Numbered from the stretch's first letter, positions 5,000-51,270 are shown. The stretch: DNA of 64,000 nt from Ignavibacteriota bacterium (GCA_963776275.1 CAVZMI010000029.1:23123-87122); one strand, 5' to 3'. Made by a program: numbers and translations. Notes: generated by a model from the sequence alone, not told the origin.

Positions 5000-5131
5000 A
5001 TGAGAATCTTCCAAATTTATCTGACCAAACCTCAGATTGCGGCACTTAAAAAGCTCTCAGAGAAACTCGATCTAAGCATTGCCGAGCTCGTGCGTCGTGC
5101 CATTGATATGTTCTTGGAACAACAAAAATGA
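5000..5131 (+). CDS. ribbon-helix-helix (CopG/Arc-like) small protein coupled to tnpB
   Basis: 43-codon ORF absent from the track (under 60 aa): MRIFQIYLTKPQIAALKKLSEKLDLSIAELVRRAIDMFLEQQK. It has a beta-strand then two helices with the SxAELxRxAI signature. Its TGA overlaps the tnpB ATG (ATGA at 5128-5131). Confidence 0.6.
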   Translation: MRIFQIYLTKPQIAALKKLSEKLDLSIAELVRRAIDMFLEQQK

Positions 5132-6267
5132 GACGCACATTTCAATATCGAGTTCAACTTTCTAAAACTAATGAAGCGAATTGTCTCAGATGGTTAGAGC
5201 AATGCCGAATTCTCTACAACCTTGCTCTTGAACAACGTATTACCATCTATCGACAAAGCAGAAAATCCCTTTCTTGTTACGATCAAATAAAACAGTTGCC
5301 CGAACTCAAAAAAGAGTTTTCCGATTTCAAACAGGTTGATTCTCAATGTTTGCAGGATGTTCTTGAACGACTCGATAAAGCATTTAAAGGATTCTTTCGG
5401 CATGTCAAACAGGGTAAAGCTGGATTTCCACGCTTCAAGTCTTTTGGAAGATATGATTCCTTCACGTTGAAACAATGCAGTTGGAAACTCAATATTAGAA
5501 ATCTTACCATCAAAAATATCGGAGTTCTCAGCCTTCGTCTCTCCCGGCCGATCGAAGGCCGTATCAAGACCATTACAATTCGTCGAACTCCAACCGGCAA
5601 ATGGTTCGCCTGTTTCTCCTGTGATGAGGTTCCCGTTCGAAGCTTTCCGATAACCACGGCCGAAGTGGGTATCGATGTTGGTAGCAGAACATTTTGTACA
5701 GACTCCGATGGATTCAGTATTCCCAATCCAAAATATTTGAAACAGGGGCAAGCTGATCTCCGACGCAAGCAGCGTCGCCTTGCCAGGCGTGTCAGAGGCT
5801 CGCAACGCAGGAAGAAAGCACGGATGCTTGTAGCTAAGGCCCACGAGAAAGTAGCCAATCAGCGGAAAGATTTTCTTCATAAGTTGGCGAACGACTATAT
5901 AAGAAAATACAAAACGATCCATATTGAGGATCTCAATATTCAAGAAATGGTAAAAGGAATTAAAGGCAATACGAAATACATCGGCAAATCCGTGGCCGAT
6001 GCCGGATGGGGTGAATTCTTTCGAATGCTCTCGTACAAAGCGGAAGAAGCTGGTCGAGTCATTGTTAGAGTTCCCTCGAAGGATACGACAACCACCTGTT
6101 CCCGATGCGGCGTTGCTGTTCCAAAATCTCTTACCATTCGTATTCATCGATGTCCCTCTTGTAATCTTAAAATCGGCCGTGACCTAAATGCGGCTCTGAA
6201 TCTTTTAAGGGTCGGGCAGACCCTTCAGGCGTCAACGTGGGCTGATGTAAGGCCGTGCGTTGCCTGA
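5128..6267 (+). CDS. tnpB: TnpB (IS200/IS605-family OrfB, RNA-guided RuvC nuclease), copy 1
   Basis: 379 aa. N-terminus MRRTFQYRVQLSKT..CLRWLEQCRILYNLALEQR. RuvC motifs GIDVG, IHIEDL and RDLNAALN. Zinc finger CSRCG..CPSC. Paralog of 50143-51270. Confidence 0.9.
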   Translation: MRRTFQYRVQLSKTNEANCLRWLEQCRILYNLALEQRITIYRQSRKSLSCYDQIKQLPELKKEFSDFKQVDSQCLQDVLERLDKAFKGFFRHVKQGKAGFPRFKSFGRYDSFTLKQCSWKLNIRNLTIKNIGVLSLRLSRPIEGRIKTITIRRTPTGKWFACFSCDEVPVRSFPITTAEVGIDVGSRTFCTDSDGFSIPNPKYLKQGQADLRRKQRRLARRVRGSQRRKKARMLVAKAHEKVANQRKDFLHKLANDYIRKYKTIHIEDLNIQEMVKGIKGNTKYIGKSVADAGWGEFFRMLSYKAEEAGRVIVRVPSKDTTTTCSRCGVAVPKSLTIRIHRCPSCNLKIGRDLNAALNLLRVGQTLQASTWADVRPCVA

Positions 6268-6322
6268 GAATCTCGGCGTTTTTAAAAGCATGGGAATGTC
6301 AAAGCCTCTCATATTTCATAGC
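6160..6322 (+). ncRNA. putative omega RNA (reRNA) of TnpB copy 1. The 5' boundary is approximate, and the guide is predicted at 6303-6322.
   Basis: A 35-nt block (6203-6237) is 100% identical to copy 2 while the flanking codons differ at synonymous sites. It contains the hairpin GGGTC-GGGCA-GACCC (6209-6223). Conservation continues about 35 nt past the stop codon and ends at GGGAATGTCAA (6302). Confidence 0.5.
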
Positions 6323-6325
6323 CGA

Positions 6326-7159
6326 TCATAAATCGTTGTCCAAGAATCTGTCGTTCGTTTCAAATACATCTTGTTTGGTGTCTACTGTGTCGATCGGATT
6401 TGTCAACTTATTGAAAAATGCACGCTTCACCGTCATAACCATTTTCGGAAGATCATTTTCTTCCGTAGCCCGGGCTTTCGCCAGTTCTTCCCAAACGATG
6501 TAGTTTGGTGAGCACAAAAATTCGACGGCATAATCTGCACCCACGGCCGGCGCCTTACTGTCCTCTGTCTCTAACCATTCGACTTCTATATCCGAGACCA
6601 CAGGCATATCCGCCGACGCCGAAATCTGTACTGTCCCATCCGACAATATTACGGTAGTAGGTTCGGTTCCATTGACCTTAATTTTATAGTCAGTCCCATA
6701 TATGTATCGGAGTTCGAATTTCTCGGCGTTCACACTCACGAGAGACAAAATGCTCTTTACGTCAAAGGCAAAGATCACATCTTTTTTCCCTCTGGTAAGA
6801 ACATCGAAATCTCTGATGGGCTTGTTCTTGATAACAATAATATCGCCTTTGAATATGCGATCGTAAATTGTCAGCCGCTTAAATTCACCTTCGACCCATT
6901 CCACTGGAGGTATCGAGAACCGCGCACCACCCTCATAAATCTTCCCCGCTGGCCGCGTAATGATATGATAGCTTACAGAAGTTCGGATCAATCTTACCTG
7001 GACCGGGTCATCATATTTGTATCCATGAATTGCATCGGCATCCGCCATAGTTAATCCATGCCTGAGTTCAGGCGACAATTTGGATTGATACCATAGGCAT
7101 TCGACTCCGAATTGTCGGATCAATTTCTGTACTTTGCTATTCGATAATATTTTTCTCAT
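6326..7159 (-). CDS. hypothetical virion-module protein
   Basis: 277-aa ORF, 8 nt downstream of the preceding virion ORF. Family not recognised. Confidence 0.5.
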   Translation of the reverse strand: MRKILSNSKVQKLIRQFGVECLWYQSKLSPELRHGLTMADADAIHGYKYDDPVQVRLIRTSVSYHIITRPAGKIYEGGARFSIPPVEWVEGEFKRLTIYDRIFKGDIIVIKNKPIRDFDVLTRGKKDVIFAFDVKSILSLVSVNAEKFELRYIYGTDYKIKVNGTEPTTVILSDGTVQISASADMPVVSDIEVEWLETEDSKAPAVGADYAVEFLCSPNYIVWEELAKARATEENDLPKMVMTVKRAFFNKLTNPIDTVDTKQDVFETNDRFLDNDL

Positions 7160-7167
7160 CGCCGGTC

Positions 7168-8268
7168 CTATACTACAGTTATTTCGTAACCGATACCATA
7201 TTCCCTCTTCATTTCCTCAGTCCACTTCGTTTCATCCTCGCGCAAATCTTTGAGCAGTCGATCAATACCCGATGACTCCGAACTGCTCACTCCATCCATC
7301 GACAAACTCTGAGAAATCAAGCGTACCTTCGCATCAATCTTAGGCAATATTTCAATAAGTGCGTTCCGGCCGATTGCTCTGCGAATTGCTTCTTTCTTTG
7401 CATCATCTAATGTCGGGAAATCCAGACCATGCGTATACTCGATCCGGAATAGTTGCGGGACACGACTGTATATCCCTCCCTGCATAATTGTTAGCCCGAG
7501 ACCATTCATCGCACCAATCAGTATTGAATACAGGGAGCCGGACATGGCTGTCGGCAAGAATTCTATTATACCCATCTTCTTGTCTATTACCAGCTGGTCA
7601 GCAATATTCGGGATAAGCTCAGCTTGCTGACTGCCGTATACCAACTTGAAGGAATCAACACTAATGAGCGGCCGGCAATCTACCTGCTGCAGCCAGAATT
7701 CTGTCTTGAAATCCTGCAAATAGTAATCGCGTTTTATTGAGTCTTTGGACTTAAAAAATTTCATCTTTATTCTATTTTCAAGCTCTCCCTGTGAAGCGAG
7801 AAGCGTATTTCTCATACTATCCCGATCTTCTTTTACATATGATTCGACGGCATCCTTATAATCGTCATCCAACTTCGCATCTGCGGCTATGTATTGACTT
7901 AGGAATATCGATACCGGCATAATTTCTGCCCGAACGCCATTTGTATCTCCAACAGTAATTAATCTGATATCCTGAGGCACATTCGATTGATCAATAAGAA
8001 CGTTGATTTCTTCGTTTTGGACATTCCAGTAAATGCGATAATAACCAGGTCTCGTATTTTGAGAGAATATTACATCGATGTAGTATTGATTTTTATCTTC
8101 TGCATCATCGAATGTAGCTTCCTTGTCTTTGATCTCTTCACTCTGATCATCGAGGGCCACGGCTCCATCCTCGCCGTAAATGCTTGCGGTGACAGTAAGG
8201 TCTGCCACCGCCGCATTCGCATCTTCGAGATAGAATCTATTCGTACCTTGAAGAGCCAATGTTTTCAT
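7168..8268 (-). CDS. hypothetical virion-module protein
   Basis: 366-aa acidic ORF, tightly packed after the 75-aa ORF. Family not recognised. Confidence 0.5.
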   Translation of the reverse strand: MKTLALQGTNRFYLEDANAAVADLTVTASIYGEDGAVALDDQSEEIKDKEATFDDAEDKNQYYIDVIFSQNTRPGYYRIYWNVQNEEINVLIDQSNVPQDIRLITVGDTNGVRAEIMPVSIFLSQYIAADAKLDDDYKDAVESYVKEDRDSMRNTLLASQGELENRIKMKFFKSKDSIKRDYYLQDFKTEFWLQQVDCRPLISVDSFKLVYGSQQAELIPNIADQLVIDKKMGIIEFLPTAMSGSLYSILIGAMNGLGLTIMQGGIYSRVPQLFRIEYTHGLDFPTLDDAKKEAIRRAIGRNALIEILPKIDAKVRLISQSLSMDGVSSSESSGIDRLLKDLREDETKWTEEMKREYGIGYEITVV

Positions 8269-8271
8269 CTA

Positions 8272-8499
8272 TTATGATCCTTTATTTTTCTCGTCAATAT
8301 ACCGATTTGCGATATCCATGGTATCTTGGTCTGTGCAGATAATCTGATGCTTTGACCAATCCAGCTTCGGGCCGGCAAAATATACTTCTTTCAATTTCAA
8401 TTTTCTCAATTCGGCCAAATCGAACGAAGTGTATGGTGCATCATAGAAATACAAATTGAAAGATTGACCTTCGAATTTTATAGCTTCTTTGTTTTTCAT
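8272..8499 (-). CDS. hypothetical protein
   Basis: 75-aa ORF between the tail fibre gene and the 366-aa ORF. Confidence 0.4.
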   Translation of the reverse strand: MKNKEAIKFEGQSFNLYFYDAPYTSFDLAELRKLKLKEVYFAGPKLDWSKHQIICTDQDTMDIANRYIDEKNKGS

Positions 8500-8512
8500 A
8501 TCCTAATCCTTA

Positions 8513-15841: not shown

Positions 15842-18800
15842 TCATTCCTGGTCTTCTGTATTCTCTTCTTCTGGAACTTCTTCTTCCGTTGATGGCCATT
15901 GCCACCCGAATACCTCGTTCGCAAAATTAACTTCTTTTGGCATGGGTGGTTTATAATGACGATTTCTCCCTGCCCATATCTTTCTATATTCTGTCCGCTC
16001 TTTCTGAGCAATGTCCAAAATATCCTTCATCCATCGCCTAATATCTAATGGCCAATAAATATCATCCTTCGAGTATGTCGGTGGAAGATTTTCTGTTTGC
16101 CCTGTTCTACGATTATACTCCTCTTTTGGTTCAAAATCACTCCTTGCAGCAATTTTTACTCCTCCGGTTTTATGATCAATGACCGGTATGTCATCAACAT
16201 CATTTTCTTCAAGTATTTTGAATATATTTTCTTTCTTATTCGTGATCGTATCAGGTTGAAGTAATCTAACCTGCCTCCAATTTTTTATGCTGTCGTAAAG
16301 CTTCCTCTCAACTTCATCACTATGCACCGCTGGAGTTGATATCCCACTCTTGAAGAATGATTTGAATTCATTAAAACCAACATTGCTTATCTCTCCGGGT
16401 GATGGATTGGCATGATCGTATTCTCTTTGCTCGCCCTCAATAATTTTTTCTATTTTCACACGCCGATTGACCGGATCAACAGAAACGAATCGATATAATC
16501 CATGCTTCTCCCAATTACCTCCGTTTCGAGTAAAATATCTACCTACTGGTACTACAATTCGCCGATCGGCGTCGACATATGCCGGTTCATCCGATTCCAG
16601 AAGGCCTTTATATTCAAATTGCTCATTGTTCTGTAGTAGTTGTCTTGTATAGGTTATACGTTCCTGTAGCTGCTTGCCGAGTTCATCAGACTTTTCTTCC
16701 GGCTTCATCTTTTTATACTGGATCAAGAGATTCTGATATTGATTGAATGCAGACAATCCTCTCTTTTGCATTTCCTCTCGGTTCTTCTCAATCTGTGTTT
16801 TATTCTCTGCATCTACTTTTAGGCGCTCGGCTTCGGGATCATCGGAAAGCATCACCTGTAGTTCCTGCGGTGAAAAGCTTCTTCCGGAATTCTCATTCTT
16901 CGCTTCATCTGCTGTACCATTCCACAGATCCCATTGCCAGCCTTTCTTTCGATTGATCGCGTCAAAGAAAAATCCGTCAAATGTCCCATGTGTCATATAA
17001 TAATTTATATCGACCATTTCCCTCTTGTTCCCTTGCCGAACTCCTCGACCGTTGCGCTGTTCGATCGCTGCCGGCGTCCATGGTAAGGTAAGATGATTAA
17101 CGGCGCTTGTTTCTACCTGGAAATTCATACCTTCGGCCATTGTACTGTTGCCAATAACAACTTTGTATTTTCCACTGTTGTATTCTTCCGACATATGCTG
17201 TCTGTTCGATGAACTCCCGGCGGTATCAGCGTTGATTATGAGGATATCTTTCTCTGGAATACCGGCCTTAATTAATTCATTTTTGAGTTCTTTTTGTATC
17301 GCCTTAAATTCCGCAAATATCAATTGCTTTTCACCCGTCTTATAAATTCTTAAAGTATCTTCCACGCTTTCTTTCATCTTCGGACTTACACCCTCTTCTT
17401 CTACCTCTTTGCTGGTCAATTCTGGACGGTGTTCGCTTCCTTCCTCCATCAACAGTTTAATAGAAATTGCTGCCTTCTGCATATCTGAGAGAATCGAAAA
17501 AATATGATCACCACTTTCCTTCCGTTCTTCTTCGGTCATTGCCAACAACTCTCGAGCACGTTCTCTAAGATCATTATATACTCTTTTTTGTAATGTTGTC
17601 ATGTTGCTTGTGTTAAAATGCGGATCCGGTTGAGGGACCTTCAATCCTACATCCTGAGCTCGGCGCATGTCGGTATATCGCATGAAGATTGTTCGTAATT
17701 CTGGTAAGGCTTTGAAACCGGTCAAAGCTGGCCGCGGTTTTATCTCTCCACTGATATCTGCAATATCCAGAGTCTCTACATTACCGAAAGTATCGAAGAA
17801 GTCTTGCATGTTAAAAATATTTCGGCGATCGTATTCTTCAGGAGCAATATATTGAAGCATGTTATATGCTTCCAATGGATTATTCACTGTCGGTGTTGCC
17901 GTCAAGAAAAATACATTCTTTCCATTATTCTTTTCTCGAATGAACTGCGACGCAACATACATTCGCATCGATCGCTGTACGTCCGGCTGTGTCATTGCCC
18001 ATTTAATCGGCCGCCCGACAAGGCCAAAAAGATTCCGATAACTATGAGCTTCATCGGCGAACAACGCATCCACACCCAACTGGTCAAAATATATGGTTTC
18101 TACTTTCTCGTGGCCGGCTTTTACTCGACCCATGATTGCCCGTTCTATATTAGCTTTGGCGACTTCCACATCCCGGGCTGTGGCTTCCGCATTTGAACGT
18201 ATGATGTGTCGATGCACTACATCGTCCAGAGTCCGTTGCAATATCTCCGGACTGAATGACATCATGTCAAATTTATCCCGAGTAATCAGAACAATATCAT
18301 AATCATTCTGAGCGACCTGTTGTAATTTTCGTTGAACTTCCTCAAATGTATCTTCATTCCATTGGATTTTGCCTTTTACATCAAGTTGTAATGTTTCATT
18401 TTTATCCTTTTTCTCATGCATCCCTATGATCATGATCTTCCGTTTTTTATTTCCGGAAAAGACATTGATCTCACTCACCCAATTCGCCAGGACGCTTTTC
18501 GGTACTACGATCATCGGTTTCTTCGCTATTCCCCTTTCCTTCAAAAGATAGGCCGTGGCAATCGCGGCAAAAGTCTTGCCCAATCCGGTCCCATAAGCCA
18601 GGATGCCTCGTCCCACATCAAGCATTCTCCGGATAGCTGAATAATGGTATCGATTCAATGAAAATCCATCGTCCATTTTATCGATCGGGATGGGAGTATC
18701 GTCATACTCCTCTTTCACATAGTTGTTAAACTTTCGATTATAGGTATTCTCGAACTCTTGCCTTTTCGGATGAACTGCTAACCAGCTCCGGAAACGTTCT

Positions 18801-19309
18801 TTGAATTCTTCGATCGCTTCCTCACGGTCTTTATTCTGGACTCCGTGCTCCAATCCTAAATTATTGAGATGCCGGATTAAATCACCGTAGAAATTGTATT
18901 CACTTGGAACAGTGCCTTTCGAATGAGTTAGATCTACTTCGTAAATGTTCGTCGTTTCATCATACAATAAGGGTTTATTCCCCCGACTGATCATAAACTC
19001 ATTCAGTACTTCAAGGGGGATCCATCGCGAACGGAGATTGAGCGGCATCTCCTCAATCGTCCGGAATTTTACCTTTGATTGCATTGTTGTTATTTGATTT
19101 TCGAGTTTCTGAATTTTGAGTTCATTCTCTCGATCGTCACCTCCCATCAATCGACCTATTTCATTTTTCCATCGGTCGATTTTATCATACACCGTTCCGG
19201 AAAGCAGCCTTTCCATTGGCATGTCGTAATATAGCGGGATCAACAGCTCTTTTCGATCTTTCAGATCTATTATGTGCTCGCATGAGTGCGGTATCATAAT
19301 CTGCGTCAA
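15842..19309 (-). CDS. large SNF2-family helicase (polyvalent-protein-type)
   Basis: 1155 aa. Motif I GTGLGKTFAAIATAY, motif II FADEAHSYRN, then LTATPTVNNPLE, and a helicase-C region ending QRNGRGVRQGN. The true start is uncertain: in-frame ATGs at 19222, 19216 and 19147 would shrink the 125-nt overlap with the upstream ORF. Confidence 0.85.
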   Translation of the reverse strand: MTQIMIPHSCEHIIDLKDRKELLIPLYYDMPMERLLSGTVYDKIDRWKNEIGRLMGGDDRENELKIQKLENQITTMQSKVKFRTIEEMPLNLRSRWIPLEVLNEFMISRGNKPLLYDETTNIYEVDLTHSKGTVPSEYNFYGDLIRHLNNLGLEHGVQNKDREEAIEEFKERFRSWLAVHPKRQEFENTYNRKFNNYVKEEYDDTPIPIDKMDDGFSLNRYHYSAIRRMLDVGRGILAYGTGLGKTFAAIATAYLLKERGIAKKPMIVVPKSVLANWVSEINVFSGNKKRKIMIIGMHEKKDKNETLQLDVKGKIQWNEDTFEEVQRKLQQVAQNDYDIVLITRDKFDMMSFSPEILQRTLDDVVHRHIIRSNAEATARDVEVAKANIERAIMGRVKAGHEKVETIYFDQLGVDALFADEAHSYRNLFGLVGRPIKWAMTQPDVQRSMRMYVASQFIREKNNGKNVFFLTATPTVNNPLEAYNMLQYIAPEEYDRRNIFNMQDFFDTFGNVETLDIADISGEIKPRPALTGFKALPELRTIFMRYTDMRRAQDVGLKVPQPDPHFNTSNMTTLQKRVYNDLRERARELLAMTEEERKESGDHIFSILSDMQKAAISIKLLMEEGSEHRPELTSKEVEEEGVSPKMKESVEDTLRIYKTGEKQLIFAEFKAIQKELKNELIKAGIPEKDILIINADTAGSSSNRQHMSEEYNSGKYKVVIGNSTMAEGMNFQVETSAVNHLTLPWTPAAIEQRNGRGVRQGNKREMVDINYYMTHGTFDGFFFDAINRKKGWQWDLWNGTADEAKNENSGRSFSPQELQVMLSDDPEAERLKVDAENKTQIEKNREEMQKRGLSAFNQYQNLLIQYKKMKPEEKSDELGKQLQERITYTRQLLQNNEQFEYKGLLESDEPAYVDADRRIVVPVGRYFTRNGGNWEKHGLYRFVSVDPVNRRVKIEKIIEGEQREYDHANPSPGEISNVGFNEFKSFFKSGISTPAVHSDEVERKLYDSIKNWRQVRLLQPDTITNKKENIFKILEENDVDDIPVIDHKTGGVKIAARSDFEPKEEYNRRTGQTENLPPTYSKDDIYWPLDIRRWMKDILDIAQKERTEYRKIWAGRNRHYKPPMPKEVNFANEVFGWQWPSTEEEVPEEENTEDQE

Positions 19310-20234
19310 CCAGTACCAATCTTACTTTATATCCATTCTGTTTCAATTCATGATATAATTTTTCAGCCTTCCCGGGATTCGATAGCGCTCCATCGATCAC
19401 CACATTCTGTTTATTTTTTATTGCTTCTGAAATGAGCTGCTTACTCATATGCGAACTTTCTTCATGGGCAATACTGGCCGCTTCATAATCATCGGCTGCA
19501 CGGAGAATTTGGTATTCTGGTATAAATTCCTTTGCCTCATCGGCATCGACCCATACATGAGATCGATTCGATTTCAAATCACCGTACAATGTTCTAAGGA
19601 TCGTACTCTTTCCGGTCCCGCCTCCACCTGCCAGAACGATCGCCTCACGCTTTCCTTCAGGCAAATCTTTCGGCACCTCTGCTGTTTGTATATTGAGAAA
19701 TGCTGAATGTAGTTCGCTTCGTTCTGGTTCCCATTGTCCATCATGGAAATATCGCCGCTCAGTGCTTATATCCTTAACCTGCGATAGAAACTCCTCATCG
19801 AGATCCTCCGGCGTAATAGTCTCAAAATCACGATAGATATATTGCTTTAATCGATCAACATATTTCCTATTCTCTTCTTCTTCCGGTACCGGAGCTTCGC
19901 TGGCCGACGTTCTGGATATCGCGAAATGTTTTCCAAGTCTCGATTTAACAGCCAACATATGATCGGCTATGTCTGTAACCTTTACCCTCAAACCACGATA
20001 TTTGACTTCATCACCAACCTTTATATCCTTCTGCCACTGTTCAAGCTTGTGGGATTGAAGCTCTTGTTTCTGAGACTGATGTTGGTCGGTCGGTTTTTGA
20101 TTTCCTTTCTTCTGTTTCTCATAATCGTCATCGTTCAACCAACGTCCCTGATCTGTGGAGAACCTGCGTCGATCAGTGGGGCCAAACATCCGGACCTCGC
20201 CTTCTGTCGGCTTTTCCACTGACTTCCTAAACAT
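19185..20234 (-). CDS. Zeta-toxin-like P-loop kinase with an N-terminal junction/SH3-like module
   Basis: 349 aa. P-loop LAGGGGTGKSTI followed by VDADEAKEFIPEY and a GYKVRLVLVDAD layout typical of Zeta-toxin/AAA_33 kinases. 8-nt overlap with the upstream 1261-aa ORF. Confidence 0.6.
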   Translation of the reverse strand: MFRKSVEKPTEGEVRMFGPTDRRRFSTDQGRWLNDDDYEKQKKGNQKPTDQHQSQKQELQSHKLEQWQKDIKVGDEVKYRGLRVKVTDIADHMLAVKSRLGKHFAISRTSASEAPVPEEEENRKYVDRLKQYIYRDFETITPEDLDEEFLSQVKDISTERRYFHDGQWEPERSELHSAFLNIQTAEVPKDLPEGKREAIVLAGGGGTGKSTILRTLYGDLKSNRSHVWVDADEAKEFIPEYQILRAADDYEAASIAHEESSHMSKQLISEAIKNKQNVVIDGALSNPGKAEKLYHELKQNGYKVRLVLVDADYDTALMRAHNRSERSKRAVDPAILRHANGKAAFRNGV

Positions 20235-23200
20235 AACGATCGCCTTTTTCCCGATCGCTCTTGAAAAACCGTATCAGTTGGCGTATGCTTTTTTTTAAGC
20301 CGCCCTTTTCATTCGCTAATTCAAAACCATACTGCCTTGCAATATTTTCCATTTTACGATATACATCAAACGCCCCGAATTGTTCTTTTGCCGATTCCTG
20401 CTCATCGGCTGTCAGCTGCTCCTCTCCGGACCGATAGGGCTTATTCTCAAGCAGAGTTCGTTCAGCGATTGCCACCACATCCTGATACTGTTCTGCCTTC
20501 TTCTGTTCTTCAGATTTGATTGATCCGAAAATATCATCCTGATTCTGATCAAGTGTTTTAAGCGCATCAGAGAATCGGCGTATTTTTAGTGCGAATTGGT
20601 TTATCGATTTATTCCGGTTTTCTTCATCAAACCGTGGATTCATTGCTTGATGATATGCTATCATGCCGACAACAGTTAACGGATCCCGGAAAAGGTTCTC
20701 TTCTTTCTTCTCTGTGGAAAGTAGATCTTCCTGCCTCATTCGATGGATGAGTGTGTCAGGATTCATCGCTTGAGGATCGTCATTTAAGAATTCCACGTTT
20801 CCGGCCCGGATATTCATCAATGATTTCGTCCCAGAACCGAGGTTGTCATAGGATTTTACCACACGGCCGAGGAAGGATTGAATATCCGCATATCCGGGGA
20901 CCCGGCCTTCCGCCACTGCTCGCTGATTGTCTGCCAGGACCGAAGCCAACTTTCGTACCAATCTATGTGTTTTGTCATCCCGACCAGCAATATCCTCAAT
21001 GAAGTCTTTCTTTAGTTGCGCCAGCATCGCGATATTGACAAGTCTTGCTTGTACCGATGGATGGCTCTCAACTGCTTCACGGGCTAATCCGGAATCCTTC
21101 AAAATCTCTTGATAGAGTTGTGGATTGTTTCTGACAAACGTTCCCACGTTATTTTCATCGATCGACCGGTTACCTATACCTTCAAGATTAATACGAAAAT
21201 CATATGGCGTGCGTTGTGCATTTTGGAATGCCCGGGCTTCCTCGACCTCGGTCTGCGGTAGAGCTGCACTCTTCTGACCAAATGCCGCAAGTCGACGTGC
21301 ATCTTCATACGTATGCATCGGCGTCAATATCCGAACCAGCATATCGTTTTCTGTTAGTTTTTCTGTCGGAGTACCAAGTTTCTTCGCCTTATCGAGTATC
21401 ATCCCGAAATACTTTTCACGCTGCACGCCTTGTGTACCTTTAATGCCGGCACTGCGGCCATTTCCTTGGATGATATAGACTTTCCCATCTCTGGAAAATG
21501 CCACTGGTGCACCGCGGGTAGCATCCGCATTGTCCGTTACCACGTCGTCGTTAATATCGGAAGCAATCTTTTGCATTTGAGTTACCGCGTGCACGTCACT
21601 CCTTTTTCTTGCCTGCAGTTCAACGGGATGCTCTGCGTTCTCTTGACCTTCGACATTATGAGATTCAACTACCGAATCCATAGGTACAAAAGCATATACC
21701 ACATGATAACTATTCCCACTGCTATCTCTAATCTTGAATGGCTCTTCGACCACAGCTTTTGCGTTCTCGGGAATTTCCGAGGTATCTCCCCATTCAAATT
21801 TACCTTTGGCCCCGCTTGTACGCGCTTCACCTATTTTTTCTCTGAGCTTTTCGCGTAAATAATCATTCCGGCGCTGACGGATGAAGCTCTCTGCTGTATC
21901 CATGTAATCGGATATCTGTCTGGCTGCTGGCTTTTCCTTCAGAACGCCGCTTTGCGATAGAGTATTGAAAGCATCGATCTCTCGCCCTCGCTGATCATCC
22001 GCTACTTTCATTCGCTCAGCCAAGGATTGTATGGTTGCTTTCCATTCCGGTCGACCATATGCTTCTGCGAGCTGTTCGTCAATCCCCTCTCCACTATTAT
22101 CTATGAAAGAATCGAAAACATCTTTATACATGCCAGCATCAATCGGCTTACGTCCTGTTTTTTCTTTTTCGATCCTGGCTTTCGCCGTATCGACGTCCAT
22201 ATTCCTGATCTGCTCTTCCCTTAGTTTTCCTGTAAGTCCGACGACCAACCTCTTCATTTTCTTTGAACCATCATCGAGCTTACTATCATCGACGTTACGG
22301 CGTGTATTCTTTTTTAGGATTATATTCGTTCTCCGGTTTCCATCTATTACACCGATTTCATGACCATGCTTATAAACCGTAATGCCAGTAGCAATTTTAC
22401 CGAGACGTATATCTGTATATCGGGCACCCACTGCCGGCTCCAATCTCTTCCATACTTCATCATTGATTATCCGGATGGTCCCGGGCTTCAAGAGATCTGC
22501 TTGAGTAATACCTTCTTCCATTCTGATGGCACCAAGTTCTTTCTCGCCCTTTTGTACCGTAGCATTTCCATCTTCATCCAGGATTAAGTTTCCCTGATAT
22601 TTATCGAGATCGTACTGATTGATTTTAACTTCATCATTTCCCTTCCTCAGGACAATATCATCGCCATCGATGTCAACCAACTCCTGTGTTTCGCCTTTGT
22701 ATATCAAATGAATAGGCCGGTCATTAGCCGAAACTGTATACGTCTTTTTCTCCGGAAGCCATGTTCGGTTTAAAGTATAATGAATCTTAAACCAACCTTC
22801 TTGTTCCCATTCAACATCCTTTTGAAAATTGAAATCGTCAAGCTGATTCCAGTCTTTGGAGAGATGCTCTTTGAATTCCTTATATTCCGGTGTTTCTATC
22901 TGTTCATTGTGTATCCGGGTCACTTCTTCCTGATATTTTTCCCCGACTGATTTTGGATGGGGTTCGAATTGCAATACTCTCTCCTGCTGCCGCTTTTTCT
23001 TTTCATCAAGAGCATTCTGTTGATAAATCTCCGTCATTTTTCCATGTTGTATATCTCCAGTTTCTTGTGAAATAGTTTTTTCCGATTGCTTCTTGGCTGC
23101 GACCTTACTTTCTGCGTCATGATTGTACTCGGTTGTCTTCAATGTACCTGTCGATCCATCTTCTTTTTTGAAAGCAACAATATCATCTGCATAATTTACA

Positions 23201-24012
23201 ACCTGCACCTTTTCACCCTTCCATGGTATTTCCTGTCCGACTCGAAATTCTCGAGCTGCAGGCTTTGGAGTTCCTTCGTTTTGAACTTTATCCGTCTTCT
23301 TTTGCTGACGGCGTTCAAGCTCTTTCTTTTCCTCGTCCGCGTTCATCCACCTCATCGCACCATCCGGAGTCCGCATGAGCTTACGAATATCATTCGGCCC
23401 AAATTGCTTCGTCGTGCCCTCGGTGGGTTGCGATTCCGGATTGAGGTTTAACTTAAATTTTCCAGCATTGAAACTGATACCGACCTTATTCGGTCTTTGG
23501 GTGATAGATCTCGGGGTATTGGTTTGAATACGCTTCCGAAGTTCTATAAAGAAATTACCTACTTCCTCGATGGCCCGGGTTTCCCGCTGATAATCAATTG
23601 CTGGCCGCAATAGACTCTTCCGGCATACCTTTCTCCCAGCACCGTTTTCAATTAAGGCCATTTGATCACCGCATTCGATCACCGTGCCCTCTGTTGTCTT
23701 CGCTCCCTTTTGTAACCAGCTTCCCGATATTTCCAGAATCTTTCCCTGTATATCACTCATGATAATACAATCATTCTCACTCTTGAAAAAGTAAACTTTT
23801 CCATGTTCGCGAGATGGAGCCGACCCCAGAAAATTATCTATAGTCTTATCCACAAGTAAATAAGGTTTCCCATTGATAACACCGACTTCATAACTCTTAA
23901 GTATCAATGGAATTGAATTCTCTATCGGCTCGATCAAGAGCTCAATCCCGCGTGATAGGGTATAACCTTGCACCGTCTCGGCAAAATATTTCTTTGTGTC
24001 ACTCTCCATCAT
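20227..24012 (-). CDS. 1261-aa polyvalent-type protein with a ParB-like (ddrB-ParB-type) nuclease domain
   Basis: The stretch HPVELQARKRSDVHAVTQMQKIASDI...ATRGAPVAFSRDGKVYIIQGNGRSAGIK fits the ELQPRDR...GNGR pattern of ParB/sulfiredoxin-fold domains found in polyvalent proteins. The rest is large and not recognised. Confidence 0.6.
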   Translation of the reverse strand: MMESDTKKYFAETVQGYTLSRGIELLIEPIENSIPLILKSYEVGVINGKPYLLVDKTIDNFLGSAPSREHGKVYFFKSENDCIIMSDIQGKILEISGSWLQKGAKTTEGTVIECGDQMALIENGAGRKVCRKSLLRPAIDYQRETRAIEEVGNFFIELRKRIQTNTPRSITQRPNKVGISFNAGKFKLNLNPESQPTEGTTKQFGPNDIRKLMRTPDGAMRWMNADEEKKELERRQQKKTDKVQNEGTPKPAAREFRVGQEIPWKGEKVQVVNYADDIVAFKKEDGSTGTLKTTEYNHDAESKVAAKKQSEKTISQETGDIQHGKMTEIYQQNALDEKKKRQQERVLQFEPHPKSVGEKYQEEVTRIHNEQIETPEYKEFKEHLSKDWNQLDDFNFQKDVEWEQEGWFKIHYTLNRTWLPEKKTYTVSANDRPIHLIYKGETQELVDIDGDDIVLRKGNDEVKINQYDLDKYQGNLILDEDGNATVQKGEKELGAIRMEEGITQADLLKPGTIRIINDEVWKRLEPAVGARYTDIRLGKIATGITVYKHGHEIGVIDGNRRTNIILKKNTRRNVDDSKLDDGSKKMKRLVVGLTGKLREEQIRNMDVDTAKARIEKEKTGRKPIDAGMYKDVFDSFIDNSGEGIDEQLAEAYGRPEWKATIQSLAERMKVADDQRGREIDAFNTLSQSGVLKEKPAARQISDYMDTAESFIRQRRNDYLREKLREKIGEARTSGAKGKFEWGDTSEIPENAKAVVEEPFKIRDSSGNSYHVVYAFVPMDSVVESHNVEGQENAEHPVELQARKRSDVHAVTQMQKIASDINDDVVTDNADATRGAPVAFSRDGKVYIIQGNGRSAGIKGTQGVQREKYFGMILDKAKKLGTPTEKLTENDMLVRILTPMHTYEDARRLAAFGQKSAALPQTEVEEARAFQNAQRTPYDFRINLEGIGNRSIDENNVGTFVRNNPQLYQEILKDSGLAREAVESHPSVQARLVNIAMLAQLKKDFIEDIAGRDDKTHRLVRKLASVLADNQRAVAEGRVPGYADIQSFLGRVVKSYDNLGSGTKSLMNIRAGNVEFLNDDPQAMNPDTLIHRMRQEDLLSTEKKEENLFRDPLTVVGMIAYHQAMNPRFDEENRNKSINQFALKIRRFSDALKTLDQNQDDIFGSIKSEEQKKAEQYQDVVAIAERTLLENKPYRSGEEQLTADEQESAKEQFGAFDVYRKMENIARQYGFELANEKGGLKKSIRQLIRFFKSDREKGDRYV

Positions 24013-46632: not shown

Positions 46633-46667
46633 GGTGTGATCTCTGTTTATTGTAAAACCCTATATGT

Positions 46668-46730: not shown

Positions 46731-48806
46731 TTATAGCTTATCGAGTGTGTTTTCAACAAAGGTTTTGATCTTTTCAGCCTCTGATTTATCGATTCCCAAG
46801 GCCTTCGCAATGATCGCCAGATGTTTGGCTGGTGGTTCTCCTCTGTTTATTAATGTCTGTCGCTCGATCATGAATCTCTCGGCCAGAGCCAACATCTTCG
46901 TGTCACTCAATGCAGCACCCTCCTGATATGGTATGCTTACTTCGAGCTGAGTCAGTGCATCGCATAGTATCGCATCCACATCCGCAAAATCTTTCGAGCC
47001 ATCATTCGCGTGATCGACACGATTATTTATTTTCAACAACCGCTCATGCTCCATCAAATTCCATTCACCAACGGTTCGCCTGATACCACGTCGCGTCAGT
47101 TCGTGTTTGTCGTCAAATAGTATGTGAGGAATATTATTCCAGAACATCCACCTCAGCTTCGTATAGATCTTCATCTGCTGCGGATTACTGAATCCGAGTG
47201 TCTTGCTATAAACTCCTCTTGCAATAATCTCATGGGACAATTTCTCAGAATTGTATTTATCGCTTAGTGCAAACCGGCTTCCCGGGAATTTATCCAATAG
47301 GATCCCGAGTACTTCTCCAAAATTCAAGTAATCTACGGTCAGCTCCTCTTTCGGCTGCCATACAATTACGATGTCCAGTATCGGTCTTTTATTTATTGTC
47401 ACTAACTCTGCCCGATTCTCGATAAATAATTCATCGCGCATCTCATTCATCGTTTCGATATAGCCACCTTTGAATACAAATGCGTCATAGTTCGTGGCCG
47501 CATCAAACGCCCATCCCCGCGGCCTGCTGTCACCTTTTATTCTTGTTAATTCAATTCCAATGTATCTTTTTATCTCTCTTTTCATGGTCATCGGATTTTC
47601 TATCACTCGTTCGGTTACTTTATATTGATAATCTACAGGGGATTCTGATGGTGTGAAACACTCCCGGACCTTATCAACGTGAGGTTGATAGAATCCTTCC
47701 CTTGAACTTCCCTTGATACATTCGTATCGGGCTTTGGCGTCGGATGGATCATTTCTGTAAGCTGACGCAATATCTTTATCTTCTTTTTTGGCATTTGGAT
47801 TCATATCGAATGTAGAGCTTACGAATGCAAATATTGTTCGTGGTAGATTGTTTTTTTTCTCCTCTTCGGCTCTTTGAACCAATGTCCAGGTAAAATCCCA
47901 CTCGGAATTATTCAGATATGAAAAGGTTATTGATTTACCTACACTGTGACCGAATCGCGTATTAAGATTCCCTGTAACACCTTTATGTAAAAGTTCAACA
48001 TCACGGTATCCGGTCGCTGAATCGGCTCGCGATGGTTCATCGATGACGTCGATGATAAGATTCAATCCTTCAAACCCGGTAGGAGTCGAATCAAGAGAAT
48101 GATGTATTATAGGACCATGACCAAGCATTGTGGGTACTGTTATCTCTTTCTTTTTTAAGTCTCCAAACTGTGATCGCAGATCAAGTCCCACATATCGTTC
48201 GAACCAGTTTTCGTTGCCTTCTGCTGTCTTACATCGTCTGATTAATCCATCTATTTTCGAAAAATGTACGTCACGTGCCTGCTTTTCTGTTACCATTGAA
48301 TGATTTGCGATTTCGAAGGGCATTGCCTTGTCGATCGGCTTATCATAAAAACGTGAAAAGTATAGATGCGGATTGACCATGTTCGCTATTTTATAAGTGC
48401 AATAAATTACAAATGGTGCAATGATATATGTATTCTTTCCGCCGCCCTGACCGATCGCAAATACATACTGTTGATATGTTGTGTCCCATTCATACGGATC
48501 CCGCCCGGCTAATTCCCACAAAACTTTATACTGATTTTCTGAAGGATGCATATCCAGGCGTTGTTCAATAAACTCCTGAATGTCGACAACCCCACCCTCT
48601 TTCCAGAAACTCTTTTCTCTCCAGAATGGCTTGGTCTTCGATTCAGTCAGTAGTAATGGCGCCGGACTTTGGCCCTTGATCTGATTCAGTTGGTCCTGGT
48701 TCTCCTTGTTCTTTTTCTGGAACTGTTCGTCCTTGACCTGGCGCTCCAATCCTCCCAAGAGGAAGAGGAGGGAGTCCGTTATCCCTAAATGATTCTCTGA
48801 AGGCAT
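46731..48806 (-). CDS. terL: terminase large subunit
   Basis: 691 aa. Walker A-like IGQGGGKNTYI, Walker B LIIDVIDEPS, coupling motif FVSST, and RNaseH-fold nuclease motifs WAFDAATNYDAFVF and DGSKDFADVDAIL. The start is uncertain because of a 164-nt overlap with the upstream ORF. The next in-frame ATG is at 48551. Confidence 0.65.
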   Translation of the reverse strand: MPSENHLGITDSLLFLLGGLERQVKDEQFQKKNKENQDQLNQIKGQSPAPLLLTESKTKPFWREKSFWKEGGVVDIQEFIEQRLDMHPSENQYKVLWELAGRDPYEWDTTYQQYVFAIGQGGGKNTYIIAPFVIYCTYKIANMVNPHLYFSRFYDKPIDKAMPFEIANHSMVTEKQARDVHFSKIDGLIRRCKTAEGNENWFERYVGLDLRSQFGDLKKKEITVPTMLGHGPIIHHSLDSTPTGFEGLNLIIDVIDEPSRADSATGYRDVELLHKGVTGNLNTRFGHSVGKSITFSYLNNSEWDFTWTLVQRAEEEKKNNLPRTIFAFVSSTFDMNPNAKKEDKDIASAYRNDPSDAKARYECIKGSSREGFYQPHVDKVRECFTPSESPVDYQYKVTERVIENPMTMKREIKRYIGIELTRIKGDSRPRGWAFDAATNYDAFVFKGGYIETMNEMRDELFIENRAELVTINKRPILDIVIVWQPKEELTVDYLNFGEVLGILLDKFPGSRFALSDKYNSEKLSHEIIARGVYSKTLGFSNPQQMKIYTKLRWMFWNNIPHILFDDKHELTRRGIRRTVGEWNLMEHERLLKINNRVDHANDGSKDFADVDAILCDALTQLEVSIPYQEGAALSDTKMLALAERFMIERQTLINRGEPPAKHLAIIAKALGIDKSEAEKIKTFVENTLDKL

Positions 48807-49299
48807 TGATAGCTCTTAATTTGACTTCCGGTTCTAATCCTTCAATGGTTTTTGTTATTGCATCATAAATTGCTTCTACTAATCTTACGAATTGAAACTC
48901 TTTCATGAATTCTATATATCGTTCGAGTTGTTTACCTAACGATTCTGCCGATTGTAAAATGAGTTCCAGATATTTTCTTTTTTCTCTTTCATTAATCTTT
49001 TCTAAACTCTTTTTTGCAATCTCCAATACCACCCGTGTATCGGTTATACAGCTTTGTACTTCATTGATTATGTTAATTCCACGTTCATAATGTTCTTGGC
49101 TATCGCGTATAAATTTTTTTACTATTCCAGCCTTTATACCGGCACGCGATTGTTTCTGTTTATCTCTGACCGATACCCCTGCTCGCTTCTTGTGATAATT
49201 GACAAGTCGAACTTTTATTCCCAGTATTTTAGCAATTTCCTTGGCTGATAAACCCTTTTTGTTCAGTTTGAGTATATTTTCACGAAGATTTTTTTTCAA
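48643..49299 (-). CDS. terS: putative terminase small subunit (N-terminal HTH)
   Basis: 218 aa. LNKKGLSAKEIAKILGIKVRLVNYHKKRAG. Sits immediately upstream of terL. The G/P-rich C-terminal tail lies in the overlap region. Confidence 0.5.
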   Translation of the reverse strand: MKKNLRENILKLNKKGLSAKEIAKILGIKVRLVNYHKKRAGVSVRDKQKQSRAGIKAGIVKKFIRDSQEHYERGINIINEVQSCITDTRVVLEIAKKSLEKINEREKRKYLELILQSAESLGKQLERYIEFMKEFQFVRLVEAIYDAITKTIEGLEPEVKLRAINAFRESFRDNGLPPLPLGRIGAPGQGRTVPEKEQGEPGPTESDQGPKSGAITTD

Positions 49300-49568
49300 T
49301 CTTCAACCTCAACAATCATCCGAAATTGGTTCTTCGCTGCAACTGCATAGCACAACTTTCTGATACACTCAATTGTCTGCCCACCCCTCCCGAGCACTTT
49401 CCCAACTTCTGAGGCGGTCACTTCGATGTATAGGGCATACATCTTATCACGCTCTCCTTCTTTTATTTCCACACTGTCGGGTGTGTTGACGAGATTTTTG
49501 ACAATGTTTTCAACCATCTCCCTTATTTGTCGTGCAACTTGTTGTTGCTTCGGATTGAGTGATTTCAT
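49296..49568 (-). CDS. KH-domain RNA-binding protein (KhpA/YlqC-like)
   Basis: 90 aa. VKNLVNTPDSVEIKEGERDKMYALYIEVTASEVGKVLGRGGQTIECIRKLCYAVAAKNQFRMIVEV carries the GxxG loop and the layout of the UPF0109/KhpA family. Confidence 0.7.
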   Translation of the reverse strand: MKSLNPKQQQVARQIREMVENIVKNLVNTPDSVEIKEGERDKMYALYIEVTASEVGKVLGRGGQTIECIRKLCYAVAAKNQFRMIVEVED

Positions 49569-49651
49569 AGAATTCTCCCCTGAAAATGATTTACTAATGA
49601 TGGGCTACTGCAATGCATTAAGAAAATCCAACCATACCCCTTGAACTCTTT

Positions 49652-50110
49652 TTACTTCCATCCAGACCTCGGCCAATCTTTCGGAAATATTATTCCTACG
49701 GACGGATTCAATTCGCGTATGGCCATGGCACGCGCCACATATACAGCTTCTTTATTCTTGAATATGATATAGCTTTCAGCACCGAGTCTTTCGAGATCGC
49801 ATAATGCTTCGAACTGATGATATTTCACACCGAATTGATCTGGATCTGTCGGTAATAAAAAAGGTAAACCGAGTTTCGTTCTGTGACTCTTCGCCTCGAT
49901 GAATAGTGATCGGGCATATTGATTGTTTGAACCATAAAATCGTGAACCTATAAAGTCATATCCTGTCCTTCGCTTAAAAAATACTACATCTCCATTCGGC
50001 GTCTTTCTGTATCCTTTTGGAACCTCGAACTTTTGCAAATAGGCTATTCTCCGCCTCCAATATTCCTTCGCCACAAGCATTATCTCCTTCTCAAAATCCA
50101 TACCCCTCAT
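49652..50110 (-). CDS. PD-(D/E)xK Holliday-junction-resolvase-like nuclease (RecU/Hjc-like)
   Basis: TGYDFIGSRF...SLFIEAKSH gives the D...ExK motif. The likely start is ATG 50110 (MRGMDF), with AGGA 6 nt upstream. The track start at 50155 lies inside the TnpB right end. Confidence 0.55.
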   Translation of the reverse strand: MRGMDFEKEIMLVAKEYWRRRIAYLQKFEVPKGYRKTPNGDVVFFKRRTGYDFIGSRFYGSNNQYARSLFIEAKSHRTKLGLPFLLPTDPDQFGVKYHQFEALCDLERLGAESYIIFKNKEAVYVARAMAIRELNPSVGIIFPKDWPRSGWK

Positions 50111-50255
50111 TGACATTCCTACGTTTAAAGACGTTGAGATTTTCAGGCTACACATGAGTTTACCTCACTCTTCGTTGACGCCTGAAGGGTCTGCCCGACC
50201 CTTAAAATGTTATGTGCCGCGTTCAAATCCCGATTCATCTTCAAACCGCATGCGG
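50090..50255 (-). ncRNA. putative omega RNA (reRNA) of TnpB copy 2. The 5' boundary is approximate, and the guide is predicted at 50109-50090.
   Basis: Carries the same 35-nt identical block and hairpin (50187-50201) as copy 1. Homology ends at AGGAATGTCAA (last A at 50110). Confidence 0.5.
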
Positions 50256-51270
50256 GACATTTATGAATACGACGGTGAATTGTTTTTGGTACCAACTCTC
50301 CACATTGAGAACAAGTTTCACTCGTGCCTTTGGGATCAACCTTCACCACCGTCCTACCAGCTTCCTCCGCTTTGTAGGATAGCATTGTAAAGAAATCACC
50401 CCATCCGGCATCGGCCACAGATTTACCTGCATATTTGTTTTCACTGACCATTGCTGGTATATCCAGATCCTCGATGTGAATGATTTTGTAATTTCTGATG
50501 TAATGATTCGCTGTCTTATGAAGAAAATCTTTGCGCTGATTCGCTATTCTCTCATGGACCTTGGCTACAAACATCCGTGCTTTCTTCCTGCGTTGCGAAC
50601 CTCTGACTTTCCGTGCAAGTCTTCGTTGACGGCGACGGAGATCTGCCTGTCCCTGCTTTAAGTATTTTGGATTGGGAATACTGAATCCATCGGAGTCTGT
50701 ACAGAATGTACGGCTGCCAACATCGATACCGACCTCGGCCGTCGTTACCGGAAAACTCCGAACCGGAACTTCGTCACAGGAAAAGCAAGCGAACCATTTG
50801 TCGGTTGAGGTGCGACGGATTGTAATGGTTTTGATCTTACCCTCAATCGGTCGGGAGAGATAAAGTTTCAATCGTCCAATCTTCGAAAGATGCAAATATT
50901 GTCCTTCAATTTTCCAGCCATGTTGTGTCAAGGTGAAGGAATCATAGCGACCAACGGATTTGAAACGTGGGAATCCGGCTTTGCCTTGCTTAACTCTCCG
51001 GAAGAATCCTTTGTATGATTTATCGAGTCGCTGAAGAACATCACATAGGCAGTGAGAATCAATCTGTATAAAGTCAGGAAATGCTTTTTTGAGTTCCGGA
51101 AGTTGATTCTGTTGATCGTAATAAGAGAGAGATTTTTTACACTGCCGATAAACCATTATGCGTTGCTCGAGGGCGAGGTTGTAAAGAACTCGGCACTGTT
51201 CCAACCAACGGAGGCAATTCACCTCAGTTGTCTTCGAAAGTTGAACTCGATATTGAAATGCGCGTCTCAT
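50143..51270 (-). CDS. tnpB: TnpB (IS200/IS605-family OrfB, RNA-guided RuvC nuclease), copy 2
   Basis: 375 aa. GIDVG, IHIEDL, CSQCG..CPACG and RDLNAAHN are all present. By eye about four-fifths identical to copy 1. Confidence 0.9.
   Translation of the reverse strand: MRRAFQYRVQLSKTTEVNCLRWLEQCRVLYNLALEQRIMVYRQCKKSLSYYDQQNQLPELKKAFPDFIQIDSHCLCDVLQRLDKSYKGFFRRVKQGKAGFPRFKSVGRYDSFTLTQHGWKIEGQYLHLSKIGRLKLYLSRPIEGKIKTITIRRTSTDKWFACFSCDEVPVRSFPVTTAEVGIDVGSRTFCTDSDGFSIPNPKYLKQGQADLRRRQRRLARKVRGSQRRKKARMFVAKVHERIANQRKDFLHKTANHYIRNYKIIHIEDLDIPAMVSENKYAGKSVADAGWGDFFTMLSYKAEEAGRTVVKVDPKGTSETCSQCGELVPKTIHRRIHKCPACGLKMNRDLNAAHNILRVGQTLQASTKSEVNSCVA

Follow-up and report, generated by a model that had tools for sequence, protein, structure and literature searches.

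Two sister TnpB-omegaRNA modules without a left end or transposase in a prophage of an Ignavibacteriota bacterium

TnpB nucleases are the ancestors of Cas12, and the persistence of their numerous transposase-less copies is debated. The closest described systems to the pair considered here are the IS608 element of Helicobacter pylori and the ISGst2 element of Geobacillus stearothermophilus. In IS608 a TTAC motif lies 19 nucleotides (nt) 5' of the left hairpin and a TCAA motif about 10 nt 3' of the right hairpin, each being read by a guide tetranucleotide at the foot of its hairpin (PMC3201880), and the TnpB of ISGst2 has TTTAT as its transposon-associated motif (TAM) (PMC10055086). TnpB nucleases are known to cut the transposon-free allele, consisting of the TAM and the right flank, with repair of the break from the element-bearing copy. 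Non-restorative homing, with homologous chromosomes or coinfecting phages as recipients, has been put forward for elements that lack the transposase TnpA (PMC10055086, PMC13565253). Here we describe two tnpB units, copy 1 and copy 2, in a 64,000-nt stretch of an Ignavibacteriota genome (GCA_963776275.1 CAVZMI010000029.1:23123-87122; hereafter the window). By their sequences the copies are IS608/ISGst2-type (IS200/IS605) TnpB-omegaRNA modules, and they are best called immobilised, or recombination-dependent, modules of this type. We lean, with modest confidence, towards reading them as two functional nuclease-guide units that have lost the ability to transpose and that persist either through homing-like recombination or because the phage benefits from them.

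Both predicted proteins have the OrfB_IS605/RuvC core with its D-E-D triad and a C-terminal CxxC..CxxC zinc ribbon, which places them among the TnpB proteins; D183, E267 and D352, together with C324, C327, C342 and C345, are invariant among 20 relatives. The structures of TnpB from ISDra2 of Deinococcus radiodurans (PDB 8bf8, 8exa, 8h1j) were matched at 1e-55, with residues 20-362 alignable and the GVDVG / TEHL / RDENAALN motifs (D/E/D) and the zinc-finger motifs in register. As in ISDra2, the putative RNA would be specified by the 3' part of tnpB; identity to ISDra2 is only moderate, however, and ISDra2 is complete with TnpA. The TAM of ISDra2 TnpB is TTGAT, whereas that of the window copies would be of the TTTAT/TTAC type. 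Because the catalytic triad is intact, the copies are not TldRs. The latter are likewise transposase-free TnpB derivatives, some of them on prophages, but have lost RuvC residues and have guides that match promoters elsewhere, whereas the guides of the window copies match only their own flanks, with no second match in the 3.7-Mb genome.

In a search of 5.8e9 proteins each copy was the other's best match (76% identity), and no other protein exceeded 65%. Phylogenetic placement makes them true sisters (Shimodaira-Hasegawa approximate likelihood ratio test (SH-aLRT) 100) within the IS608/ISGst2-type lineage, with a shared stem of 0.30 and tips of 0.17 and 0.19. The clade sister to the pair includes P0003, a classical element with a left-end hairpin upstream and a Y1 TnpA of 132 amino acids (aa) whose gene overlaps tnpB by ATGA. 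About one third of the relatives that are at least 50% identical have TnpA, and about two thirds are solo tnpB. In the sampled family solo copies abound, and copies that lack the left end are common too, so that we count this kind of module as already known; the contribution of the locus is that the pair is well resolved, that both sites are seen empty, and that one copy is nothing more than ATG..TCAA, placed within a translationally coupled gene pair.

The preliminary description of this DNA had proposed that the two units are old paralogs under purifying selection, homologous only from the ATG to the TCAA and inverted across about 44 kb, and each element of this proposal held. Aligned with 400-nt flanks on each side, the copies are similar from the A of ATGAGACGC (5128 / 51270) to GGAATGTCAA (6302 / 50110), with unrelated flanks, and they lie in inverted orientation with their right ends 43.8 kb apart. 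In a codon-aware alignment the proteins are identical at 288/375 positions (76.8%) with a single 4-codon gap, and nucleotide identity is 74.5% overall and 82/86/55% by codon position. Nei-Gojobori estimates for copy 1 against copy 2 give proportions of synonymous and nonsynonymous differences (pS, pN) of 0.61 and 0.15 and corrected distances of 1.25 (dS) and 0.171 (dN), for a dN/dS of 0.137 that does not exceed 0.30 in any 40-codon window. Neither copy has a frameshift, stop or catalytic substitution, at about 0.17 replacements per nonsynonymous site. With the RuvC D/E/D residues and zinc finger intact, equal tips, and a dN/dS of 0.14, both copies appear functional and long kept, as had been suggested.

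A block in the 3' coding region had also been singled out as free of substitutions. It is an invariant run of 35 nt (6203-6237 = 50207-50173) in which 10/10 complete codons are identical (P=0.0034, with synonymous states permuted within amino-acid classes); the block taken by itself is moderately unusual, and a run of at least 35 nt anywhere between the copies has P=0.024. The longest identical run is not this block; it is one of 41 nt outside the RNA region (5695-5735 / 50703-50663; P=0.0036 by codon permutation). This longer run encodes CTDSDGFSIPNPKY, a stretch that is variable in the wider family. Gene conversion between the copies was considered as its source and is not invoked, because regional variation in synonymous identity along the copies is not significant with a correction for scanning (P about 0.36).

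The RNA-level constraint that had been proposed for the 35-nt block is borne out by more than the identity run, namely by covariation across the family. For 22 distinct elements, the 230 nt that end in the TCAA were aligned and analysed with RNAalifold and pair counts, and three helices were predicted. Over 17 pairs, 92.4% of the cells are paired, compared with 74.1% in shuffles, and 58 cells carry double-sided changes, compared with 15 in shuffles; none of 500 shuffles scored as high. Sliding the partner by 1-3 columns lowers pairing to 29-55%. All six pairs of helix 1 show covariation within the family, and copies 1 and 2 have similar predicted folds despite an inner hairpin that differs at 11/25 positions. 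On this covariation, the 3' region is a conserved RNA structure with the appearance expected of an omegaRNA scaffold, which overlaps the 3' end of tnpB and would take its guide from the right flank, as in IS608 and ISGst2.

Both copies retain the right end of the family, which consists of CTGAGAATC, a covarying hairpin and (A/G)GTGTCAA. A profile of this end built without the window copies recovers exactly 6244-6302 (E=2.3e-7) and 50161-50110 (E=1.2e-6). As in IS608-type elements, the subterminal hairpin is imperfect, a guide tetranucleotide (GAAT) stands at its 5' foot, and the terminal TCAA follows about 8-10 nt on; in copy 2 the tetranucleotide is altered (GAAAAT in place of GAGAAT). The left end is a different matter. 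In nine relatives a TTAC/TTAT flank (TTTAT/TTAT/TTAC across the family) is separated by 17-19 nt from a downstream hairpin, with GATGAAT after it, and the flank covaries with the tetranucleotide at the hairpin foot, TTAC going with AAAG and TTAT with AAAA. This arrangement corresponds to that of IS608 and also agrees with the TTTAT TAM of ISGst2 TnpB. An nhmmer profile of these nine left ends found nothing, either in the window (best E=1, on the right-end hairpin of copy 2) or genome-wide (E=0.68). A stretch beside copy 2, TAAAACGCCGGGGAATAGAGACG, was considered as a left-end remnant and rejected; the profile gives it no score, and it is the conserved C-terminus of a phage gene with a homolog in a related phage.

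The window contains neither a Y1 TnpA nor a serine recombinase, in agreement with the preliminary description, and no Y1 TnpA occurs on C29, the contig that carries the window. The host chromosome has nine Y1_Tnp matches, all outside C29; none exceeds 24% identity to the TnpA of the family, and none is linked to TnpB. With this identity, and with no family-type ends in the genome besides the two right ends, they are unlikely partners in trans. As insertion sequences the copies thus lack two defining features, a left end and TnpA, and these did not emerge when homologous elements were aligned, the comparison that the preliminary description had named as able to overturn its claim. Compared with IS608 and ISGst2, the window copies also lack the left guide tetranucleotide, copy 2 lacks the left target motif, copy 1 has another small gene in the place of tnpA, and both copies reside in a phage, one of them translationally coupled into a phage operon. 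They resemble IS1341-type, or non-autonomous, solo tnpB elements, which are far commoner than autonomous copies, in comprising a lone tnpB and a right end. Classic solo elements, by contrast, keep both ends and are mobilisable in trans (L025, L028, L029, L032, L033), whereas the window copies and several relatives are not, because they have no left end.

A neutral history could produce the same anatomy, with two old IS608-like insertions that lost their left parts and a low dN/dS that mostly records selection before immobilisation. Such decay agrees with the abundance of solo, left-end-less relatives, with the changed right-end tetranucleotide of copy 2, and with the lack of a known cleavable target. 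Against it stand two reading frames that remain undamaged at the divergence given above, terminal branches of equal length that are short beside the shared stem, and RNA helices that still pair through compensatory differences between the copies; compact phage genomes, moreover, usually discard useless DNA. We regard decay as unlikely.

The insertion sites can be read against a related phage. Contig C29 is an integrated prophage of a temperate phage: the window spans a tailed-phage gene set (major head, protease, portal, terminase-like, tail-fibre, DarB-like, replication and SbcCD-like genes), the gene for a tyrosine integrase is found immediately outside it, and host genes stand at the contig ends, with an Era-type GTPase on one side and an aminopeptidase-like open reading frame (ORF) and an IS4/5 transposase on the other. 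The host genome (3.7 Mb, 38 contigs) has only the two TnpB copies, both on C29. The related phage is an 86-kb metagenomic contig (ENA ERZ25039515 contig_23613), reached through a homolog, 86% identical, of the 292-aa virion ORF beside copy 1 and compared piecewise by successive protein look-ups. It is collinear with the window, its virion proteins are 85-92% identical, and the pooled dS is 0.90 (range 0.68-1.25), so that the two phages are about as diverged as copy 1 is from copy 2. Both insertion sites are empty in it. It apparently carries neither TnpB copy, since the protein search gave no other TnpB above 65% identity. A search of IMG/VR for empty sites, with DUF5131, the 277-aa ORF, the RecU-like gene and the 691-aa gene as queries, yielded no syntenic relative, and a blastn search of a phage GenBank collection with copy 1 returned no match.

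In the related phage, the 277-aa and 292-aa ORFs at the copy 1 site have homologs that overlap each other by ATGA. The window resembles that phage up to 4928 and again from 6319, and the flanks are symmetric, at about 89-90% identity. The insert thus spans about 4941-6322 and comprises a leader, a ribbon-helix-helix (RHH) gene, tnpB, the right end and a 20-nt guide. Its left edge falls at about 4941-4944, directly after TTAT; the exact position is not fixed because the relative differs in a short stretch there. On the minus strand the guide segment contains GAGAGG, and removal of 4944-6302 in silico places this motif 5 nt before the ATG of the 292-aa ORF, where it likely served as the Shine-Dalgarno sequence. 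An ancestral site TTAT/AGCCTC.. struck by a canonical insertion would fit these observations.

These results bear on the suggestion of the preliminary description that classical transposition is less plausible than spread by homing or recombination, or than phage domestication. Its observation that left end and TnpA are missing stands; the lineage, on the other hand, is an ordinary IS608-like one with sister elements that have both. Since copy 1 lies directly after TTAT, its arrival is compatible with peel-and-paste transposition followed by loss of the left part, and spread by homing is what we infer rather than observe.

The guide of copy 1 has a 13/16 opposite-strand match 25 nt left of the insert, at the start of the coding sequence of the 292-aa ORF (4916-4931, minus strand, against 6303-6318, plus strand), and the two segments thereby form an 11-nt inverted repeat, AAATATGAGAG / CTCTCATATTT, on either side of the cassette. 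The match is probably not a target, because its mismatches are TAM-proximal and no TTAT-like motif precedes it.

The RHH gene belongs to the insert and has no counterpart in the related phage; its stop codon and the start codon of tnpB share bases (ATGA). No RHH homolog stands beside the other TnpBs that were fetched. At L003 (950-1076) a CxxC..CxxC zinc-ribbon ORF has its stop overlapping the ATG of a phage-borne solo TnpB (54% identical) in the same ATGA arrangement; this coupling recalls that of RHH and tnpB, and small DNA-binding partners may be recurrent. The L003 TnpB adjoins a 29%-identical tail-fibre-like gene and was considered as a positional counterpart of copy 1; this orthology was rejected because L003 is distant from the window copies in the tree.

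At the copy 2 site of the related phage, a DUF5131 gene, a 62-aa ORF (o62) and a RecU-like gene abut, with no TnpB. Nucleotide homology downstream begins at 50111, and the 68-aa ORF upstream of copy 2, 57% identical to o62, is a phage gene; the insert is therefore exactly ATG..TCAA (51270-50110), and it replaces 63 nt between the o62 stop and the RecU-domain methionine of the relative. The left junction, GACGCG/ATG, has no TTAT. ATGAG occurs on both sides of the insert, and it is plausible that a microhomology deletion took away a former left end.

Copy 2 is closely fitted to its neighbours. Its ATG overlaps the stop of the 68-aa ORF (ATGA), where the relative has TAATG. Downstream (50101-50125, minus strand), its right end contributes an AGGA site, 6 nt before the probable ATG of the RecU-like gene, and the final A of TCAA doubles as the A of that ATG; in the relative the RecU-like ORF is annotated as 21 codons longer at its N-terminus, ahead of the Pfam RecU match, which starts at residue 23. 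The copy also sits on a mosaic boundary (50090-52960 compared with L199:2430-5501). The three genes upstream, where DUF5131 and the 68-aa ORF form a diverged block, are 52-57% identical to those of the relative, compared with 82-95% immediately downstream, the RecU-like protein being about 85% identical. A mosaic switch of this kind is as expected for breaks with co-conversion.

Table 1. Features at the two tnpB loci; positions are those of the window.
Feature	Position	Strand	Remarks
TTAT 5' of copy 1 insert	4940-4943	+	Candidate target/TAM; overlaps ATG of 292-aa virion ORF (4938-4940, -)
Cassette leader, copy 1	4944-4999	+	Absent from related phage; no left-end hairpin
RHH (CopG-type) ORF, 43 aa	5000-5131	+	Pfam RHH_1 3.6e-7, RHH_3 4.6e-7
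tnpB copy 1	5128-6267	+	379 aa; Pfam OrfB_IS605, Cas12f1-like_TNB, HTH_OrfB_IS605
ORF antisense to copy 1, 317 aa	5194-6147	-	Codon-aligned with tnpB; open for 329 codons
35-nt block	6203-6237	+	omegaRNA helix 1 (AAGGGTC-GGGCA-GACCCTT) and 5' half of helix 2
Putative omegaRNA scaffold core/right end, copy 1	6207-6302	+	Three covarying helices; TCAA at 6299-6302
Guide segment, copy 1	6303-6322	+	AGCCTCTCATATTTCATAGC; absent from related phage
RecU-like resolvase gene	49652-50110	-	Pfam RecU; probable ATG 50110-50108
Guide segment, copy 2	50090-50109	-	TGAGGGGTATGGATTTTGAG; first codons of RecU-like gene
Putative omegaRNA scaffold core/right end, copy 2	50110-50203	-	TCAA at 50113-50110; invariant block 50207-50173
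tnpB copy 2	50143-51270	-	375 aa; Pfam OrfB_IS605, Cas12f1-like_TNB, HTH_OrfB_IS605
Phage ORF upstream of copy 2, 68 aa (63 from second ATG)	51267-51473	-	Not part of the insert
DUF5131 (gp37/gp68-like) gene	51458-52408	-	Pfam 3.9e-87; 52% identical to that of the relative

The inverted arrangement of the copies raises the question of whether they recombine with each other and flip the 44-kb segment between them. The orientation is right, identical runs of 41 and 35 nt are available, the phage encodes recombination functions (SbcCD-like and RecU-like), and repeat-flanked invertible segments are known in phages (bioRxiv 10.64898/2026.02.14.705889). In the cyanophages of that report, however, the repeats are near-identical over 500-700 bp, and TnpB is a neighbour and not the recombination site (bioRxiv 10.64898/2026.02.14.705889), whereas the window copies are only 74.5% identical overall and share no identical run longer than 41 nt. 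Inversion would cut copy 2 from its coupled operon and create chimeric genes, the TnpB-less relative shares gene order and orientation with the window, and there is no sign of gene conversion between the copies. The potential for inversion that the preliminary description had pointed out is therefore unsupported and theoretical, and we consider such a switch very improbable.

The wiring of both copies into their surroundings invites a second alternative, that the units were domesticated and, being immobile, serve the phage as a weapon against related superinfecting phages or as an addiction or regulatory module, with the RHH protein as antitoxin or repressor to a TnpB toxin in copy 1; copy 2 could belong integrally to the early operon and drive translation of RecU. 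This would account for the independent loss of TnpA and left end by two copies that nevertheless remain intact, for the gain by copy 1 of a DNA-binding partner whose stop overlaps the tnpB start, and for the ATGA coupling of copy 2 to the upstream gene and its gift of AGGA and ATG to RecU; a toxin-antitoxin role for TnpB and a DNA-binding partner has been suggested (PMC13565253, section 5.7). Against it, the intact RuvC site speaks against a TldR-type repressor, neither guide matches beyond its own flank, the closely related phage manages without either copy, and the RHH partner was not seen with other TnpBs in the sample. Domestication has, in our estimate, a minor share of the probability.

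The data above resolve the anatomy of the two units, their intactness and sisterhood, the selection on them, the covariation of the RNA, the lack of left end and TnpA, and both insertion sites. Expression, cleavage, the TAM and homing are the parts that we infer, and under our preferred reading they would fit together as follows. Each unit retains the requirements of an RNA-guided nuclease, namely an intact TnpB, an overlapping omegaRNA scaffold, the TCAA right end and about 20 nt of phage DNA as guide. Each has shed the requirements of transposition by TnpA, namely the Y1 gene and the left-end hairpin with its guide tetranucleotide, copy 2 having lost the target motif as well. Copy 1 would be expressed from a small operon of its own, in which it follows the RHH gene and which runs opposite to the virion genes. 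Copy 2 would be translationally coupled into an early operon and would give the next gene its ribosome-binding site and start codon. TnpB with its omegaRNA would cut DNA in which a TTTAT-like motif stands beside the guide sequence, that is, the cassette-free version of the phage locus. When a related phage or prophage meets the carrier in a cell, repair of the break would copy the cassette and its flanks into the rival, or the rival would be destroyed.

This would be non-restorative homing in the style of the T-even free-standing homing endonucleases (Seg, Mob), which the copies resemble in that a nuclease gene stands between conserved phage genes and is absent from close relatives, one copy lies at a mosaic boundary, and spread through break repair in mixed infection is proposed. 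Target recognition would differ, in that a guide RNA and a TAM would take the place of the protein, and homing is a proposal for the window copies. Since homing would select on both protein and RNA, it would explain the purifying selection on both without a transposase; it would likewise account for the mosaic boundary on which copy 2 sits and for an insert that a close relative lacks.

Several observations weigh against homing at these loci. Each guide matches only its own flank, the other matches in the 3.7-Mb genome being at chance level with 2-4 mismatches. An exact search of IMG/VR gave no matches for guide 2 and 12 for guide 1 that are unrelated chance matches, without TnpB and without homologous flanks. 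In the related phage, the sole relative with empty sites, the copy 1 guide sequence is absent, and at the copy 2 site 18/20 guide positions match behind CGGAA, which is not TTAT-like; read from its sequence, this phage could not be cleaved by a TTTAT-dependent enzyme, and its cassette-free alleles offer no TAM with a guide match. Homing is put forward conditionally for this reason, the sole known relative being without a cleavable TAM-adjacent target. The present guide of copy 2 may never have had a cleavable empty allele, because its left junction has no TAM, and the TAM at these loci is itself assigned from relatives. Left-end-less solo copies, common in the family, are compatible with slow decay too. 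The leader of copy 1 has a weak promoter-like TTGCTT-17-TATACT, which is unscored in a consensus promoter scan, and promoter-like matches are no commoner than in shuffled sequence.

Copy 1 has a further property that concerns its coding strand. The 317-aa ORF is the codon-by-codon reverse complement of tnpB and runs in the same direction as the virion operon, its ATG being the complement of the codon for an invariant zinc-finger histidine. The first 340 codons of copy 1 contain one TTA/CTA/TCA codon, where 11 are expected (P<5e-5, synonymous resampling with phage codon usage). Copy 2 contains five, and its longest open antisense stretch is 92 codons. In 28 of 90 distinct tnpB genes sampled, at most one such codon is present, compared with an expectation of 10-20 (probability of none between 1e-6 and 1e-14 for each gene), and the remaining two antisense frames are closed. 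This distribution is bimodal, specific to the one frame and independent of G+C content at third codon positions (0.24 to 0.8), and the open frame also occurs in L018/L019, L020/L021, L023, L024, L026, L003, L004, L005, L006, L010, L029, L030, L032 and others. On the tree the trait forms clusters, with 16 changes where shuffles average 24 (0/500). As the open frame is the majority state in the clade of copy 1, copy 2 has probably lost it.

One preprint describes a translated reverse-strand ORF, 'TnpB_rev', in tnpB of Anabaena and of cyanophage A-1(L), and our literature search found no broader description of an antisense tnpB frame. In copy 1 the frame may be a second gene, or may be kept translatable against polarity on the downstream virion genes; long antiparallel frames can alternatively arise from codon bias. 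Present in about one third of the sampled tnpB genes and probably lost in copy 2, the frame merits separate study. A fuller version of our account, in which the copies are a transposase-independent, RNA-guided counterpart of phage homing endonucleases, co-converting with their neighbours and wired into operons, with the antisense frame of copy 1 kept open, is one that we offer only tentatively and think doubtful.

Scans of the window with Rfam (gathering thresholds) and for tRNAs gave no match. The first 5 kb of the contig (C29:1-5000, beyond the window), which carry the Era-type GTPase gene, have 52% G+C, compared with 40-46% elsewhere, and are either the prophage-host junction or an assembly chimera. 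The head-module accessory region differs strongly between the window phage and the related phage; the latter encodes one 1578-aa ddrB-ParB polyvalent-type protein (L196:3030-7766), where the window (15842-24012) has separate genes for proteins of 1155 aa and 1261 aa.

Taken as a whole, the locus is a clean natural case, in which a sister pair sits in one phage, the sites are empty in a relative, the genome has neither a left end nor a cognate transposase, and both protein and scaffold are under purifying selection. It is a test bed for the ability of TnpB alone to bias inheritance between phages, by homing or by killing of rivals, and it can show how a cassette becomes integrated into the translation of a host operon. 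If the fuller, doubtful version of our account were true, modules of this type would persist and duplicate in phages without a left end, moving together with neighbouring genes by break-induced co-conversion, and would take over translational coupling to the extent of supplying the start of the next gene.

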